Shown: positions 15,244 to 36,201 of the stretch, one piece after another
Layout of the letters: every line of letters starts with the position of its first letter
Position numbering within the stretch: the stretch's first letter is position 1
Assembly: GCA_000165425.1 (NCBI GenBank)
Contig: CT868263.1
Span: 62,001-126,000 of the forward strand
Reading direction: 5' to 3'
DNA: 64,000 nt
Source of the DNA: Paramecium tetraurelia
Taxonomy: Eukaryota
Made by a program: the position numbers and the translations under genes
Notes under the pieces: model-generated
Database searches by the model: none
What the model was told of the DNA's origin: nothing
Seen by the model: only the letters and a program-made list of their open reading frames with translations

Positions 15244-18200
15244 ATGGACCATTAAAGTATGATTAATGAAATTCAGCAATGCTTTTAATCTTCAGAAGCT
15301 TATGCAAAAGTAAAAAAATACAAAGACACATTCCGTGAATAACAAAGGTATTTTGTATTTTTATTTGAGTCAAATATCGCCAATTATTTGTGAGGCAATA
15401 TGTGCAACGATGACTGAAGGCACTCCAATGAGCAAATTACTAGCCTTGAGAGTATAACATTATCCTCTAATTCTAGCTTTGTAAAGAGATGATGGATTTA
15501 AAATCAGATACATTTAGCAAACAAGTCAATGATAAAATTCTTTCGAAAATGAAATAAATTGCAATATTTAAAAAACATGATCAAAGCGATATCAGAGGTA
15601 AATATTTATTCTCTGACAATCCATGTATATATTTATTAATAAGCAAGCCAAGGAAATAGCATCAATTGGAAATAGCTTAATGAAATTATGTCTAGATTGC
15701 ATTAAAGTTTGGGCATTTTGGTATCCTTAGAGCAATTTCAAAGTTGTCTATGATGATTTAATTACATAAGGAGTTGCATTTCCAGTAAAATACACTTACT
15801 TCAAAGAATACAATGACAATCCATCATCTTTGAATTAATCATTTATTCTATCTTCTCACTCATCTAAAGAATAGCCATTAAAATAATCAATACCTAATTA
15901 AAAAACCTATTAAGATGGACAATAATTGTTATAACAAATTAACGTTTAAATTGAAAATCTAGTTAAAATAGTATAAGATTAAGAATCGAATGAGACTATC
16001 AATAACCTAAATCAAATACTCAAAAATAATTTAGAACAATACAATGGATAAATAGAATAGGTTTTAATCCAGATTATTGATTCTGGTGAAGAGAATTTAA
16101 TTAATGATTTAATTTCTAAATAGGAAATGGTTCGTGAAATCAAACAAGATTACGATGATTATCTGATAAAAAAACTTGATTGGAATAAACTTAATTAAAA
16201 ATTCAGAAGATTCACTTAATCACCTATAACTCCTGAACCCGCTTAAGCAATCATACCTACATAATAAAAATAGCAATAGAATCAATAATAAATCTAATCT
16301 ATTAAATAACCTGTAACCACAAAAGCAGATCAAACTCTATCTGTCATTCGAGAAGAAACTGTTTAGGATGCCGATCAAATAGATAAATCAAATATTCTAT
16401 AGGAGGACAATAAAGTAATAATAATTCAGAATATTAGATATCAATGAAATATTAGTCTCTAGTATTAAATTAGACTGAAAATATTAAACCAGGTGCTTAA
16501 ACCCTTCAATCAGAATTACATAAAAAAGATAAATTACAATAAGATAATAAAAAATAGATCCATAAATCTTTATCTGTAGAAGTCAATGATGATATTAATT
16601 TAAATGAATTTTAAGCTAAAATAAATAAATAAACTGACTATGCTAGTACTAAATAAACGAAATAAACATCATAGCCCCTTACTAAAAGTATTGAATAATA
16701 GTCTCCAAAAGCAATAGTTAATTAAGTATTAAGTAACGTATAAGCAAACCAATAAAATTTAAATTCAACCCTACTCTATAGCACAATTAATAATCAGTTG
16801 TAAACCAATCAAAAAGAGCAATAATAAAATTAAGAAGAAAAAGAATTGAATAATTAAAAAAATAATTTTAATAATAAGGAATAATAAAAAGATCAAATAT
16901 AGTAAAATGAGAAGGAAATAATTGAATAATAATAAAAGTAGTAGTAATAGTAGTTAGAATAATAATAGTAGTAATAATAATAATAGTAATAATAACAATA
17001 ATAATAGTAATAGTAACAGTAATAATAACAACAATAATAACAGTAATAATAACAACAATAATAACAATAATAATAATAATAGTAATAATAACAACAATAA
17101 TAATTATAATAACAACAATAATAATAATAATAATAACAACAACAACAACAACCATAATAGTAATAATAACAACTATTGCAATAATAGTAATAGTAATAAT
17201 ATTTTAATTCGAATGCAAAAAAAAATAATTTTGATGAATAAGTTAGTCAGTTGAAATAAGGATTAAAAATAGAAGGATTTGATTAAATTTATAGCTTTTC
17301 TTAAAGATAATCAAACCTGAATGAAAAAAAAAATATGAATTTAAAGTAAATTGATACTTAAGTCAAATTAGAAGGTTAGATTAATTAAATTTAGGACACT
17401 TATATTAAGTAAAAGCAAATGTAAAATTTCAAATAGGACTAAGCAAATAACAGTTCAAGGATTTCTTAGCCTTCATTAAGTTTAAGTTAGGTATCGTAAA
17501 GAAAACTAGAACACTCTTAATAATAGCATCGAAGCTCATCATAAAAACGAGAAAATTATAGTGTGAATGACAAAATAGAGTTGGAACTTTTAAAGGAGGA
17601 AAATCAAAAATTGAAATAATAAGTGAATTAGATTATTGAAAAATATGAAATCAAATAACAATAATATTCCTAAGAATTATAAGACAAAATTAACGAGATT
17701 TCTAGCTTAAAATAGGTAGTCTATGCTAAGACTGATAAAATAGATAGTAATAATTAGTTGATGAAATAATTATAAGATTTCTAAAAACTTTAATTGGATT
17801 ACTAAACTCTTGACTACAAACACAACCAATTATAAAAACAATATGACAATCTGAATGAATAACATGAACAAATTTAGAAAGAAATGTAATTAAAATCAAA
17901 ATAAATTGCATTATAAAATAAAGAAATTTATGAATTAAAACAAATTAAATAATAAGAGTTGGAAATTAAGAAGAGAAGTGAATCTGTAGGTTAATACTCA
18001 AAAACTGCTTAGCAATTTCATCCATAGAATTCGATTCTTAGATAAAGTATCTGTGACGAGCCTATTTTGACAGAAAGCCAGAAAAGGATTATTTTTCCAT
18101 TCACAAATCCATTTGAATACTATAGGGACCGTTTGAAGAATAATTAGAAAGGTCAGGTCTCTTCAGCTTATTCTGAATGGAAAAACTTAAATTTAGACAA

Positions 18201-31580: not shown

Positions 31581-32207
31581 TTTATATAAAATTATATTAT
31601 AATATAAATTAATATAAAAATAATGATCTATTATTGTAAGTCTCAAAATATTGATTTAATTGGAATACTTGATTACATTGATTGAAAAATTGATAAACAA
31701 TTGTTATTATTCAATTCATAGAACATTTTTAATACTATTATAAAAGTAATTAAACATCAAAATATGACTATAATAATGTTACATTACATAGTTTGCATAT
31801 GGCTATTTATTAATAATTTTGGATATTTAAATTAATAAAAAACATTTAAATTCCCTAAATTTGTAAGTTAATAAACATATCAAAATATTTTCGATCTCAA
31901 GCTGACCATGGCTGAACTATTTAGTAGAAAAAATATTCTAAAATACAAAAATTTTATAATTTCTATTATAAACCATAAAATATGACTTTTTTGTTCGCTT
32001 AATCCTTTTACTAAAATTCAGTAGAATGATATAATGATTATAATTATCAAAACCATTTTTATCTTTAGTAAAATATTACTAAAAGATTTATTTTTGATTG
32101 TTTTCAATTTGTATTTTGATAACAAAAATAGATTAGAAATAAAAATAATAATCCGTCTACTTTTAAAATTTTTAGAATCTTTACAATTTAAAATAGGTGA
32201 TCATTTT

Positions 32208-34655
32208 TCATTTCTTACTTAAAGGCAGCTTAATGGATACTGTGTTAGGGTAAGTCATGAGCTTAACTTTTCCTATTAAGGCCTCTCTTATTAAATCAGT
32301 AATTTATTATATTTTAGCAACATTATATTTCTGCAAGAGATTTAATTCAATATCTAAATTAATAGCAGGTTATCCTATAATGGATAGCCTAAATTTTATA
32401 TTAAATATTATACCAACTCTTTCCAAGAGGAGTGGGTACAAAACACAATCTAATCCTACTAGCAAAATTAGTAACTGTAATCTTGATTTCAATAGGCACT
32501 TAATATTCCTTAGGCCATGTAACGAGGAAAATTGTACTTAAGACAATTAAGACTTTCCCTCTAAAAGATAAGTCTAAGTCACATAGAAACTGAAATTTAT
32601 GAAAAAATAATACTTCATTAGCATCCTATCTTAGTGCTTATATATCAGATAATGATGGAGGATCACCAATAATCTTTAAATCAGATACATTAATCTCTGA
32701 TAGCATTGCAGCTCTCTTTTTATTTAAAGTCTTATGCAAAATCTTTTTAATCTTCCCTTTAAAAAATTGACTTTCCTTCCAGTCGTTGACTAATACTTTT
32801 AATAGTTTTTAAAGCAATAATGATGTTGTACTTACATAAACATCTTCTACCATTTCTTCATTTTGACAAATAGTCACTTCTTTTTCATTTTATATTACTT
32901 GCTCCTTACTTTCATTTTATAAGATTTCTCTTTATTACATAATCTAAATATTTTCAGTAGCTAAATTTAATAATAAGTTTACTTTCATCAACTATCATTC
33001 TTAGATTAGTAAATATTTAAATAGCAAATCTCCCCAAATCTTCAATTAATGTTTTTTTCATTTTAGCTACTTATTTATTGTGTTTATTGAGAATATCTTC
33101 AATTTTCTTTAAAGTATACCCTTACAATGAAATAAGAGTTTTTTTATCTTCTATTAATTTTACCTACTACTCTCTAAGATCATCCTCTTTCAAATTACTC
33201 ATCTTTTGAACTTTAGATACAGTTTAACCGATAGTTGCATAAAATTTACCGAAATTTAAGGATTTCACATCTGACATATTTTATTTCATCTCATTAAAAA
33301 AATGTTAAGCTGCCTTCTTTGTTTTGGATTTATCGACTTAATCATTTTGATACTATTCAAGTGCTTTTTCATCAGTGCTAAGACTTTGCAACTTTTTTAG
33401 ATCTCTTAATGCACAAGTTTCAAGTTCTTTGCCAATAGACATCTCTAATCTACATTTAGCAATATCTTATCTTTTTCTTTCTATTTAGTCAACAAGTTGT
33501 TTATTTGAATCTTTAATTATTTGAATAACACCCACTAAACTTGAAAATAGAACATTGAAAATATCTGCAACTTCTTGTTTTTCTAATTCAATTTGTAATT
33601 TCACTAATGTAAAATCTTTATCTATTAATTTTTGATTAAAAATTTATATAGTATCTCTGAAGAAGTACTCTAATTCTTCATTATACTTTTACACTATTTA
33701 CCATTATTAAAGTAAATAAGTAGTTTGTCTTTAACATTCCTTTATTTATTCATTGATATCAAATTCAGCTATTTAATTTTATTATTAATCCTCCTACACT
33801 TGCTTTTGAGGGGATTTTGGACTCCTGTGTTATCTCGAGGGGTATATTTAATCTAATATATAAATGGGAGATATCATTACAATAATCTTCATCCATAATT
33901 ACTATTAAAGTGGAGATCTAAGTCTAAAATTAACTGGCATAATTCTCAGATGTAATTAAAAATGCTTGGAAACCTTGTTTTACAAATACAACTCTCGACT
34001 CTTCATAATTAAGTTAGAATAGGTGCATCTTTTGATTAAATTCATTGATTTCTATTTAATTCTCTTTGATTTTATCTCTGGCATCTGTTAATTTCAATCT
34101 TATGGTATCAGATTGCTGCATTTGCAATTTGACTTTCATTTCGCTTTTAATGATTTAAGTTGGATCATCCTTTCTTTTTAGCATTTCTTGATGAGCCAAA
34201 GTAAAGGATTACAAATCTTTTTCAATTTAATTGAATTCATTTAGAATCTTATTATAATGTTGATAGCATTCGACCGTTTGATATTTTAATTTCTTTCTTT
34301 GTTTTCTGATTTCCTCCACTTCTTTCGTGTAGGTTCTCCTGAGTGATACTAATTGAATACTCACTTTGTTTATATCTGAGGCGATTTCAATATGGCTTTG
34401 ACTAATTTATTTTAACACTTTCTTAAAGTCTTTCCATTAAGGTAAGTACAAAAATAATTTAGAACTCAACTAGATTCCAGTAAGTTGTTGGATAATTTCG
34501 TTTCTTTCTTCAGAATATTTATCTATGCTATTAATTTCATTTTCAGAAAGTAATTTACTATCTAACTCGTTTAATTGTGATCCGAATTATTGTTCAGATT
34601 CCTTATATTTTGATAATTAATACCTTGATCCCTTCCAAAAAGTCCATATAGACAT
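32208..34655 (-). CDS. Helical/coiled-coil (BAR-like) protein with C-terminal Mmm1-like SMP domain
   Basis: C-terminus reads DWKESQFFKGKIKKILHKTLNKKRAAMLSEINVSDLKIIGDPPSL..DLDLSFRGKVLIVLSTIFLVTWPKEYQVPIEIKITVTNFASRIRL..QPAINLDIE..ITDLIREAL..MTYPNTVSIKLP. Confidence 0.78.
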
Positions 34656-35047
34656 CAAGTTTCTTTAAGAATTTTTTTCTATATAATTTTTAGACAGAAA
34701 TTTGTTAGGATATTTAAGTATCCTCTTATTTAGGTTATGGATTTTCAATTTGCAATTCGGTATTGAATTTATTTATATAATGTTTTCTCTTCTATTTAAC
34801 TGGATGCAAATATTCTTCGAAGTTTTATTTAACTTATAAATGACATGAATATTTTACAGCTGGTGATTGTAATCTTATAATTCTAATGCTGTTTTTTAAG
34901 ATAATCCATTATGTAGTTATATTGAACACCAAGGATAGTAAAACATCCAATTATAAAGCCAATAAAAAAGGAATAATTGTACCATTGAAGAAATGAAGCA
35001 ATAATTACTCCAAAAAGTATTTTATTTGTTAATTACATTAATTATTA

Positions 35048-36201
35048 ATGGAAGAAAAAATTGAATAACAAAAATAATTAATAATTAAAGCTAAATTAAC
35101 CATCGATAAGTTAAGAGCAGAATTAGCAGAGAAAATTCAATAATTATAGGAAGAAAAACAAAAAAACGAAAATCTAGAATAGATTGTCAATAAATATTTG
35201 GGAGATGAAAAGAAAATTGTGTGTGAAAGGGTTTTGGCCAAAGTCAAAGTAGAGGAGATAGAATGGATATGTATTAAAAATAATGGAATTGAATGGGTAA
35301 GGGAAAGCGAATTCAATAAACAACTAAACTCTTAATTACATGAAGATATTAAATTACTAGATTATTCTAAATCCAAAGACGATATTTTGGTTGTTGCGTA
35401 ATAATACGATTAGAGAATGAAAATATTGTAATAAGAATGTTTTTAGAGTGAGAAGAAAAAATAAGAAATTCTTACTTTATACAATGATTTGTAAAACGAA
35501 TTTGACAAATATAAATAGGAAATCATGCAAAATATTAACGAAGTAGTTAACTAATCAGAATAAATCAGAGAAACTACTTTAACCTTAGTCGATTAAAGTG
35601 CAGATTGTGAGGCAAAAATTAAATTGTTATTGTTGCAATTGCTGAAAGTAAATTAATATATAAGCTAAGTCTTGTAGTCCATAATTACATTTCCTTAAAT
35701 AACACTTAATTACCTTGAATTAAACAATTTATGAGTTGATCCAATAATAATAGGAGCAAAGTAATTTGATAGAGTAAGAAGGAAAGGAGCATAAATAAAG
35801 ATTACTTGAAATAGAGGAAGAACGAAAGATGGAGCGAGAACAAAGTATTTTTTATATAATTTAAAACAGAAATCTAGCATTTTGAAAATGGTAGATAGTA
35901 AATCTAATTATTAGAAAATACAATTGATTAAATTACAAAGGAATTGAGAGAAAAGAATATTAAAATTGATAGATTATGTCAAGAGAATTAAAAGAATGCA
36001 AATATTTAATATATTAAGAATGTTATCATACGATTTTTTACAGAGGAATATTCAGTAATTATATCAATTAATCATAAGGTGAAACAAAAAACAATTCCTG
36101 TGATTGCTACTGTATTATAATTTACAGAAGCAGAACATGCAATTGTTCAATAGGCATGGGAAAGAGATTCGAAGTCTTTTTTGAGTAGAATTTTCAAATG
36201 A
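35048..36201 (+). CDS. GRIP-domain golgin-like coiled-coil protein
   Basis: Coiled-coil body; C-terminal ANIQYIKNVIIRFF...KTIPVIATVLQFTEAE matches the GRIP pattern. Confidence 0.85.

Follow-up and report, generated by a model that had tools for sequence, protein, structure and literature searches.

The window analysed, a 64,000-nucleotide stretch of a Paramecium tetraurelia contig, carries on its minus strand the gene GSPATT00012622001, whose product bears the UniRef name 'SMP-LTD domain-containing protein'. Read in the ciliate code (table 6), the gene has seven exons and six introns of 22–28 nt and spans the interval 32208..34655, in which the bacterial code gives no long open reading frame. 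The database protein of 851 residues (P0001) matches the window letter for letter over the seven exons, from an ATG at 34909 to position 32208. The coding sequence very probably starts further upstream, at an ATG at 35038.

32208..35038, minus strand: coding region in the preferred reading, 894 codons plus a TGA stop at 32210-32208; P0001 covers 34909-32208; drawn from the exact mapping together with the evidence for the extension
34833..34857, minus strand: intron 1, 25 nt, GT..AG, implied by the exact mapping of P0001, outside the coverage of the RNA records
34602..34623, minus strand: intron 2, 22 nt, from the P0001 mapping, spliced out in RNA-derived contig X5
33853..33880, minus strand: intron 3, 28 nt, from the P0001 mapping, spliced out in RNA-derived contig X5
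32961..32982, minus strand: intron 4, 22 nt, from the P0001 mapping, spliced out in RNA-derived contig X3
32590..32613, minus strand: intron 5, 24 nt, from the P0001 mapping, spliced out in RNA-derived contig X3
32389..32413, minus strand: intron 6, 25 nt, from the P0001 mapping, spliced out in RNA-derived contig X3

The RNA sample comprised two raw-read runs and two contig runs, with a coverage that excludes positions 34850-35070 and intron 1. Over the full length of the gene the raw stranded reads, 37 in one run and 50 in the other, share one orientation. The position of intron 6 is ambiguous by one base, as a G flanks both of its ends. Intron 5 is stop-free and its length is a multiple of three; its retention would add eight residues to the SMP domain.

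An earlier note on this DNA had placed the gene at 32208..34655. Its 3′ end was right, 32208 being the last base of the TGA, while 34655 turned out to be an out-of-frame ATG within exon 2; a start there omits 87 annotated residues and 43 more, which contain hydrophobic segments, and misreads the frame of about 18 residues. A gene model built from this ATG with a 31-nt intron was rejected in favour of the letter-for-letter match to P0001. Both protein segments that the note had quoted, LSTIFLVTWPKEYQVPIEIKITVTNFASRIRL and MTYPN.VSIKLP, are found in the ciliate-code translation. Its proposal that an SMP domain and a helical region belong to one protein also held: the exons form a frame-consistent chain with five introns spliced in the RNA contigs, and the same architecture is seen in 11 of 11 non-Paramecium clusters of relatives with full-length models. 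The modules of the protein are as follows.

34910..35038, minus strand: N-terminal extension, 43 codons from the ATG at 35038, hydrophobic in two stretches (about residues 7-19 and 24-38)
33782..34728, minus strand: block 1, predicted F-BAR domain, residues 53-351 of P0001 (96-394 of the 894-residue protein), split by introns 2 and 3
32878..33781, minus strand: block 2, acidic long-helix region, residues 352-645 of P0001, with a transitive link to F-BAR
32211..32835, minus strand: predicted Mmm1-like SMP (TULIP) lipid-transfer domain, residues 660-851 of P0001, split by introns 5 and 6, from profile and fold

We analysed the C-terminal domain by profile comparison and structure prediction, both of which predict that it is an Mmm1-like SMP lipid-transfer domain. 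The SMP-focused family profile (A6, 36 sequences, with the P0001 C-terminus as first row) matched the solved structure of Mmm1 (5yk6) over the whole domain with an E-value of 6e-18, followed by Mdm12 (1.7e-8) and E-Syt2 (3e-5), and all nine chains matched at E<=10 were SMP proteins. The AF2 model of the region has a pLDDT of about 90 over residues 660-851 and shows an N-terminal helix (657-697), long, strongly curved antiparallel strands (708-809) and a C-terminal helix (819-834), the succession of elements by which we defined the TULIP fold. Foldseek returned Mmm1 as the best match to this model (2.5e-10, target TM 0.62), with Mdm12, E-Syt2 and TMEM24 next, and VIA aligned 200 residues with Mmm1 at Z 15.9 and rmsd 4.5, against Z 13.4 for the SMP domain of E-Syt2. 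The Mmm1-like SMP fold claimed for this end of the protein is thus borne out at the place where it was claimed, and the HMM alignment pairs precisely the Mmm1 segments that the note had named with those it had quoted from the sequence. In each of the 16 sequences compared the domain is basic, with a net charge between +5 and +16.

The SMP assignment rests on family profiles and predicted fold because Pfam stays below its cutoff on the single spliced sequence: the spliced C-terminus alone gave just an SMP_MUG190-like match (E 0.011, below cutoff), and the full-length protein alone gave no SMP or FCH match at threshold. Among the 24 relatives scanned, 9 pass the cutoff of Pfam MMM1. A match to Pfam MMM1 above cutoff (28.6 bits) was also obtained for the P. 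tetraurelia protein with intron 5 read as coding, and was set aside as evidence.

Block 1, the first of the two helical regions, is an F-BAR domain by family profile and predicted fold. Its profile (A2) matched the solved structures of GAS7 (5.6e-6), syndapin (5.7e-6) and CIP4 (2.6e-5), with PACSIN and Fes at up to 1e-3; F-BAR domains make up 20 of the 58 solved chains matched at E<=1 and 10 of the 12 best, aligned over profile positions 110-333 (about 220 positions). The predicted fold was aligned by VIA to PSTPIP1 (7aam_B; Z 14.6, rmsd 5.7, 269 of 287 residues, model range 53-351) and to FBP17 (Z 12.9, rmsd 4.9, 266 of 281 residues). Many F-BARs, at Z 14.6 to 12 with some 260-269 residues aligned, ranked above classical BARs at Z of about 11, on a scale where values below about 13 are common for long helices. 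Foldseek matched FCHO2, Hof1, PSTPIP1, Imp2 and GAS7. Pfam FCH was found above its cutoff of 27.8 bits in two of 24 relatives, P0009 (55 bits) and P0019 (31.2 bits), with a third just below.

Block 2 is probably a divergent second F-BAR-like repeat, to judge from sequence comparisons that link it to F-BAR only transitively. Both profiles match residues 512-749 of the relative P0009, that of block 2 at 2.8e-5 and that of block 1, through its positions 14-239, at 4.6e-5; P0009 was left out when the two profiles were built, and the search was made over 13 sequences. The Pfam FCH match of P0009 (residues 501-570) falls in the region matched by block 2, and a weak FCH match is found there also in P0030. 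Direct comparison of the two blocks by hhalign was weak (P 0.006, with a probability of just 6%). Modelled alone, block 2 reached a pLDDT of 66 and gave no Foldseek match; in a VIA-wide search it matched only generic coiled coils, with Z <=7.7. Across the family its net charge ranges from -2 to -16, and the Paramecium version exceeds that of the other relatives by about 110 residues. Of the two F-BAR-like blocks suspected in the earlier note, the first is therefore well founded on profile, fold and the FCH matches of relatives, and the second moderately supported, by way of P0009.

It could be argued that the helical region is no more than a long coiled coil, a spacer or a rod for oligomerisation that fixes the length of a tether, its likeness to F-BAR being ancestral or structural and entailing no curvature sensing. 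Such a rod would fit the net charge of block 1, which is about zero in Paramecium, the acidity of block 2 in every family member, the purely generic coiled-coil matches of block 2 alone, the lack of a Pfam FCH match for the P. tetraurelia sequence by itself, and the ease with which long helices reach the lower VIA scores. We nevertheless regard it as unlikely: block 1 matches F-BAR across the full domain by profile, its best fold score exceeds those of classical BARs and of unrelated helical proteins, FCH passes the Pfam cutoff in two relatives, and block 1 carries a net charge of +4 to +11 in 9 of 13 non-Paramecium rows.

The 43 codons between the ATG at 35038 and that at 34909 are, in our judgement, likely to be translated. 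The extension is identical at 41 of 43 positions to that of P. octaurelia P0112 and at 34 of 43 (79%) to that of P0116, which belongs to the other ohnologue lineage; this is comparable to the 695 of 851 positions (82%) conserved in the rest of the protein between the two lineages, and both the ATG and the frame are kept. It is included in both P. octaurelia gene models. The ohnologue of the gene within P. tetraurelia is GSPATT00013371001. In length, two-segment layout and end motif the extension also aligns with the hydrophobic N-termini of relatives, a feature of all but one of the 11 non-Paramecium clusters. From this alignment and its two hydrophobic segments, the extension is a probable membrane anchor or hairpin. 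The earlier note had seen no hydrophobic anchor and had deduced a soluble shuttle from its absence; the conserved in-frame extension speaks against the former and leaves the latter unsupported. The alveolar sac, the ER and the mitochondria, which the note had proposed, are candidate locations. With an anchor and a second membrane-binding module, the protein would thus follow the usual plan of SMP proteins.

Several measurements of the extension are less distinctive. Its GC content is 0.24, compared with 0.27 in the exons and 0.16 in the introns. Over 19 residues its hydrophobicity peaks at 1.63, a level reached by 13.7% of random 43-residue pieces from this AT-rich window and lower than the 1.7-2.9 of relatives. 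An HMM of the relatives' N-termini, run against the 982 ORFs of the window, gave the extension a non-significant 2.3 bits with the HMMER composition correction; in a scan with the same HMM but no such correction it came fifth of 933, behind other hydrophobic ORFs. The first 60 residues gave no match in a word-index search, the likely reason being that no extended model serves as a cluster representative. The ATG at 35038 lies just 9 nt from the ATG at 35048 of a divergent GRIP-domain gene, a gap that is awkward for transcription starts. In P. tetraurelia the start of transcription is typically 11-26 nt upstream of the ATG, according to the preprint 10.64898/2026.09.19.752804.

The methionine at 34909 is conserved in all ten Paramecium models, while relatives carry Y, F or V at that column. 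It is conceivable that the gene produces two isoforms, an anchored protein of 894 residues from the ATG at 35038 and a soluble one of 851 residues from the internal methionine, through alternative transcription starts or leaky scanning, so that a single gene would supply its lipid carrier in a tethered and in a diffusible form. The conservation of this methionine in Paramecium alone would agree with such an arrangement, as would the difference in annotated starts between species and the cramped head-to-head promoter, which makes transcription starts within 34910-35037 plausible. Yet a conserved methionine can be a plain structural residue, and the RNA coverage excludes both 5′ ends; we consider two isoforms quite unlikely. 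The least likely of the alternatives is that translation begins only at 34909 to give an anchor-less F-BAR and SMP shuttle drawn to membranes solely by the surfaces of its F-BAR and its basic SMP domain. In favour of this, 8 of the 10 Paramecium models start at this conserved methionine, the gap to the neighbouring ATG is shorter than the typical distance of a transcription start given in the same preprint, and neither the hydrophobicity nor the HMM test sets the extension apart. Against it, the extension retains its ATG and frame at nearly the identity of the rest of the protein, aligns with the N-termini of relatives and is carried by both P. octaurelia models. The 8 database models without the extension appear to be N-terminally truncated and to lack the anchor.

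The plan of an anchor, two helical blocks and an SMP domain is present in distant ciliates such as Blepharisma. Because it is conserved from Paramecium to Blepharisma, the family that joins F-BAR to SMP is probably old in ciliates. In a tree of the SMP domain (52 rows) the Paramecium proteins form a clade with support of 100/99, and the long SMP-only proteins P0077, P0083 and P0087 group apart from them in a starred clade. Since its deep forks are open and short models of unknown architecture lie scattered through it, we do not take the tree as evidence on whether the F-BAR fusion arose once. Full-text literature searches gave no description of the combination of SMP with F-BAR. Ciliates, alveolates and BAR appear in PMC6069729 nowhere but among the references, and PMC11532953 has SMP in its references only. 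A protein atlas gave no usable match for the P. tetraurelia protein. The pairing is unusual and undescribed in the literature searched, while SMP proteins that combine an anchor with a further module are a kind already known.

We compared the protein with known SMP and F-BAR systems. According to PMC11320393, SMP proteins are in general anchored in the ER by a transmembrane segment or a U-shaped hydrophobic loop, carry a further module for binding membrane and have an SMP domain that dimerises. By profile and fold the closest SMP domain is that of Mmm1, a member of the Pfam PF10296 'MMM1' group, which also takes in TEX2/Nvj2 and PDZD8. With this group the P. tetraurelia protein shares an N-terminal membrane anchor, here putative, and a cytosolic SMP domain, and with TEX2/Nvj2 and PDZD8 also an added module that binds a second membrane or a partner (PMC11320393). 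It differs in that their SMP domain is close to the anchor and their extra modules are PH, PDZ or C1-coiled-coil, whereas in the P. tetraurelia protein the SMP is C-terminal and lies beyond some 600 residues of F-BAR-type helices that follow the putative anchor. The architecture of ERMES Mmm1, in which the anchor is followed directly by SMP and nothing else, is not that of the P. tetraurelia protein, and orthology to Mmm1 is not claimed. The E-Syts and tricalbins likewise have an N-terminal hydrophobic ER hairpin, an SMP domain and separate modules for the other membrane (PMC11320393). Their C2 domains, however, are C-terminal to SMP, while the F-BAR of the P. tetraurelia protein is N-terminal to it, and the SMP of E-Syt2 is a weaker sequence match than that of Mmm1.

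Block 1 corresponds to the whole F-BAR domain of PSTPIP1/Cdc15/Hof1/Imp2, CIP4/FBP17, PACSIN/syndapin, GAS7, FCHo2 and Fes. These proteins are soluble and pair their F-BAR with SH3, RhoGAP, kinase or muHD modules; among the matched F-BAR chains we know of none described with an SMP domain or a transmembrane anchor. A ciliate protein that can be set beside ours, by description only, is GFU1 of Tetrahymena, which has an F-BAR-like structure predicted by AlphaFold and interacts with lipid bilayers in ESR assays. In PMC11187246, the source of these statements, GFU1 is described with a role in gamete fusion and without a transmembrane segment or SMP domain.

On balance we favour the reading that the product is an SMP-class lipid-transfer protein of 894 residues, anchored in a membrane, in which F-BAR serves as the second membrane module. 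From the N-terminus the modules would be the hydrophobic pair, a complete F-BAR, the acidic, divergent F-BAR-like block and, at the C-terminal end, the basic Mmm1-like SMP. The mechanism is modelled on E-Syt/tricalbin, TEX2/Nvj2, PDZD8, TMEM24 and Mmm1, with their N-terminal ER anchor and module for a second membrane, and builds on what the analysis established, namely how the gene is built, that its product has SMP and F-BAR domains, that the extension is conserved and that distant ciliates share the four-module plan. By this analogy, the hydrophobic N-terminus would probably tether the protein to the ER. The F-BAR region, which is probably a dimer, may recognise or stabilise a curved, acidic partner membrane or, in cis, a curved ER tubule, and the SMP domain, some 600 residues from the anchor, would shuttle or channel glycerolipids between the two bilayers. 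F-BAR would here stand in place of the C2, PH or C1 domains of other SMP proteins, so that lipid transfer would be directed to sites of defined curvature. The distance of SMP from the anchor gives an order unlike that of every characterised SMP protein, and the analogy may not carry over.

It is also possible, if improbable, that there is a ciliate-wide family of ER-anchored SMP proteins steered by a tandem F-BAR. A basic first copy and an acidic second copy would form a single-chain BAR 'pseudo-dimer', transfer would be confined by curvature to places such as parasomal sacs, the rims of alveolar sacs and contractile-vacuole tubules, and the internal methionine would supply a soluble isoform in Paramecium. 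If true, curvature recognition would for the first time be seen coupled directly to an SMP lipid conduit.

At membrane contact sites SMP proteins play a central part as carriers of lipids, and where each of them acts is decided by its second-membrane module (C2, PH, C1 or an adaptor). Ciliates have elaborate cortical membrane systems, and Paramecium and Tetrahymena offer good genetics, which makes the idea testable. In the favoured reading of an anchored SMP protein, F-BAR as the second module would, if true, tie SMP lipid transfer directly to membrane curvature.

The window has a GC content of 22-31%, and with the bacterial code no long ORF was seen. With the ciliate code (TAA/TAG = Gln), the interval 32208..34655, where the earlier note had placed its gene, is filled by a minus-strand gene that changes frame along its length. 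A word-index search with one exon matched six Paramecium proteins of 850-851 aa, named 'SMP-LTD domain-containing protein' in UniRef. The best of the six, P0001 (the annotated product of P. tetraurelia GSPATT00012622001), maps to the window letter for letter as 7 exons and six introns, with its annotated ATG at 34909. The window is accordingly macronuclear DNA of P. tetraurelia, or DNA that cannot be told apart from it. The earlier note's 3' end (32208) was correct and its quoted peptides are found in the translation, but its start at 34655 was an out-of-frame ATG, so that the true N-terminus was lost.

Features of the SMP gene and of its divergent neighbour
32210-32208, minus strand: stop codon of the SMP gene (P0001 mapping)
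32389-32413, minus strand: intron 6, 25 nt (P0001 mapping; absent from X3 contig)
32590-32613, minus strand: intron 5, 24 nt (P0001 mapping; absent from X3 contig)
32961-32982, minus strand: intron 4, 22 nt (P0001 mapping; absent from X3 contig)
33853-33880, minus strand: intron 3, 28 nt (P0001 mapping; absent from X5 contig)
34602-34623, minus strand: intron 2, 22 nt (P0001 mapping; absent from X5 contig)
34833-34857, minus strand: intron 1, 25 nt (P0001 mapping; outside RNA coverage in every run)
35038-35036, minus strand: ATG of the extended SMP gene (open frame upstream of 34909)
35048-36201, plus strand: GRIP-domain golgin-like gene (ATG 35048-35050)

We compared four RNA runs over 32000-35400, where coverage excludes intron 1 and 34850-35070. 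Introns 4, 5 and 6 are spliced out in the X3 contig (32168-33729), and introns 2 and 3 in the X5 contig (33729-34826). Of the raw reads in two stranded oligo-dT runs (37 and 50 reads), all those from the SMP gene had one orientation and all those from the neighbouring gene the opposite one. The SMP gene is real. The X3 contig ends and the X5 contig starts at the same base, 33729, within exon 4. It does not argue for two transcripts, since the open frame of exon 4 runs uninterrupted across that base; k-mers common to the SMP gene and its ohnologue GSPATT00013371001 probably broke the unitig at this point. Intron 5 is stop-free and a multiple of three in length; its retention would escape nonsense-mediated decay and add 8 residues to the SMP domain.

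We analysed the C-terminus, which had been read as an Mmm1-like SMP domain. A Pfam MMM1 match (28.6 bits, cutoff 21.9) was obtained only for a reading that retained intron 5, and was rejected, as this intron is spliced out in the one RNA contig covering it. The correctly spliced C-terminus had no MMM1 match in Pfam (best SMP_MUG190-like, E 0.011), and the full-length protein matched no Pfam family. Exhaustive phmmer searching returned 97 relatives (E<=1e-3), the majority of which matched residues about 660-851. A profile built from 36 of them and headed by the C-terminus of this protein matched solved structures of Mmm1 (E 6e-18, whole domain), Mdm12 (1.7e-8) and E-Syt2 (3e-5); all 9 solved chains matched at E<=10 were SMP proteins. 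In the profile alignment, '...LLLNYPK...LPINVTVSIIRFQACL' and '...IKLP' of Mmm1 are paired with exactly the segments that the earlier note had singled out. An AlphaFold2 model from a 70-sequence alignment had an overall pLDDT of 64.6, and about 90 over 660-851. With this model Foldseek found Mmm1 (2.5e-10, target TM 0.62), then Mdm12, E-Syt2, TMEM24 and remoter TULIP proteins, and VIA structural comparison likewise gave Mmm1 (Z 15.9, rmsd 4.5, 200 aligned residues). The domain, with a net charge of +5 to +16 in every member, falls within the Mmm1/TEX2/PDZD8-type group (Pfam PF10296) and not with the E-Syt type.

Searched alone against Pfam, the protein gave nothing in its N-terminal 650 residues. 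Among 24 relatives scanned, FCH exceeded its cutoff in two, P0009 (55 bits) and P0019 from Blepharisma stoltei (31.2 bits), and fell slightly below it in a third, P0030 (26.6 bits). The profile of family alignment A2 (18 members) matched 58 solved chains at E<=1; F-BAR domains were 20 of these and 10 of the top 12, the best being GAS7 (5.6e-6), syndapin (5.7e-6) and CIP4 (2.6e-5), with PACSIN2 and Fes also matched, over about 220 positions. Model residues 53-351 (block 1) resembled PSTPIP1 most closely in VIA (Z 14.6, rmsd 5.7, 269/287 aligned), followed by Hof1, Imp2, Cdc15, CIP4, srGAP2, FBP17 (Z 12.9, rmsd 4.9, 266/281 aligned) and GAS7; classical BAR domains ranked below F-BARs, at Z about 11. 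Because sequence profile and modelled fold agree across the whole domain, block 1 is assigned as an F-BAR domain; it resembles those of the PSTPIP/Cdc15, CIP4 and PACSIN families.

The earlier note had suggested that there were possibly two F-BAR-like blocks; the first is borne out, and the second (block 2, about 352-645) is probably a divergent F-BAR-like repeat, the best evidence being transitive, via P0009. The model of block 2 was poor, whether taken from the full-length prediction or made for the block by itself (the latter with pLDDT 66, pTM 0.24); Foldseek found no match to the model, and an all-against-all structural search returned generic coiled coils only (Z<=7.7). Profile-profile comparison aligned only the first 32 columns of the two blocks (P 0.006, 6% probability). 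P0009 was left out of both block profiles, and in a 13-sequence search its second block (512-749) matched the block-2 profile at 2.8e-5 and the block-1 profile, over nearly its whole length, at 4.6e-5; it also contains a Pfam FCH match (501-570). Every member has an acidic block 2 (net charge -2 to -16), which is 296 residues long in Paramecium versus about 180 in other relatives.

The 851-aa protein as annotated lacks a hydrophobic segment, its sole 19-residue peak (1.96) lying inside a block-2 helix. In 10 of 11 non-Paramecium clusters with full-length models, the protein starts with one or two hydrophobic segments ahead of block 1 (hydrophobicity over 19 residues 1.69-2.91); the model of the exception, P0016, begins inside block 1. 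The frame of the annotated ATG is open upstream as far as the ATG at 35038, adding 43 residues with two hydrophobic segments that can be aligned with the N-termini of relatives, the annotated 'MDYLKK' falling at the end of their second segment ('YYYVLTK'). An HMM of the relatives' N-termini did not single out the extension ORF among 982 window ORFs with composition correction (2.3 bits); without it, the ORF ranked 5 of 933. Several overlapping, strongly hydrophobic ORFs at 16586-17362 top the uncorrected ranking and may reflect either a gene for a multi-pass membrane protein or simple T-richness. A second negative is that 13.7% of 43-residue pieces taken at random from the window match the hydrophobicity of the extension. 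In its favour, the extension has a GC content (0.24) closer to that of exons (0.27) than to that of introns (0.16) or of the 3' flank (0.19). In P. octaurelia each ohnologue lineage has a gene model of 894 aa, and both models include the extension. Its identity is 41/43 to the P. octaurelia orthologue and 34/43 (79%) to the other ohnologue lineage, versus 695/851 (82%) over the remaining residues, with the ATG kept and zero indels. At the level of sequence, these models and this conservation are the decisive positive test, and the extension is very likely translated. Both domain calls of the earlier note stand; its 5' end does not, and its inference of a soluble protein with no anchor very probably fails, given a conserved hydrophobic extension that aligns with relatives' N-termini and is present in both P. 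octaurelia models.

What still speaks against the extended start is its position, since only 9 nt separate the start codons of the extended SMP gene and of the divergent GRIP gene. The latter encodes a 352-360-aa coiled coil that ends in a GRIP domain (Pfam PF01465, precomputed for orthologues); its orthologues from three species (P0117-P0119) all begin MEEKIEQQKQ, and the protein is 94-99% identical across aurelia species. The GRIP gene was expressed more highly than the SMP gene in the RNA runs examined, and the two genes apparently lie on one contig in three other species too. A preprint places the usual transcription start in P. tetraurelia 11-26 nt before the ATG (10.64898/2026.09.19.752804); therefore the 5' ends of both mRNAs would have to overlap, reaching each other's first codons. 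Alternatively, some transcripts may begin within the extension, so that translation from the internal Met would give a soluble isoform; this Met is kept in 10 of 10 Paramecium models, and relatives have Y, F or V in its place.

Of 116 proteins fetched, 33 are at least 600 aa long, and 27 of these have the order block 1, block 2, SMP; 16 of the 27 had served in the training alignment and the others are mostly near-copies of its members, leaving P0009 as the only truly independent case. The sources are Paramecium (six aurelia species) and Blepharisma stoltei, fragmentary models from Ichthyophthirius and Pseudocohnilembus, and otherwise metagenomes or transcriptomes. Four long relatives (P0018, P0077, P0083, P0087) have the SMP domain without helical blocks; three of these group in a supported clade of their own in the SMP-domain tree, whose deep forks are without resolution. 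P. tetraurelia has kept both ohnologues; module by module their identity is 77-85%, and it is 64% over the short 14-residue linker preceding the SMP domain. Seven non-Paramecium relatives (P0014, P0019, P0023, P0025, P0030, P0053, P0063) carry a C-x-C motif directly before block 1 (columns about 115-125 of family alignment A4) and H-x3-C-P-[YC] directly before the SMP domain (about 615-625); both motifs, which might mark a metal site or palmitoylation, are absent in Paramecium proteins.

The SMP call is not new, as automatic annotation already carries the label ('SMP-LTD domain-containing'); existing annotation names do not cover the F-BAR part, its tandem layout or the probable anchor. Full-text literature searches found no description of an SMP plus F-BAR protein, nothing on this protein for 'SMP domain' with Paramecium, and no paper that brings SMP and F-BAR together with 'lipid transfer' and 'membrane contact'; broader searches likewise gave nothing relevant among the papers they listed. 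The nearest published ciliate F-BAR-like protein, Tetrahymena GFU1, is described without SMP or TM (PMC11187246). The modules, their order and their conservation are observed here directly. Characterised SMP proteins, as outlined in PMC11320393, are ER-resident via an N-terminal TM or hydrophobic loop and reach the second membrane by another module, with frequent SMP dimerisation. By analogy, the hydrophobic N-terminus would anchor the Paramecium protein in a membrane, probably the ER, the F-BAR region may bind or sense curved membrane, and the basic SMP domain may move glycerolipids. In contrast to every described SMP protein, the second module here is an F-BAR and the SMP domain lies at the far C-terminus, where elsewhere it adjoins the anchor; on architecture the protein does not qualify as an Mmm1 orthologue. 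It probably belongs with the anchored SMP proteins of contact sites.
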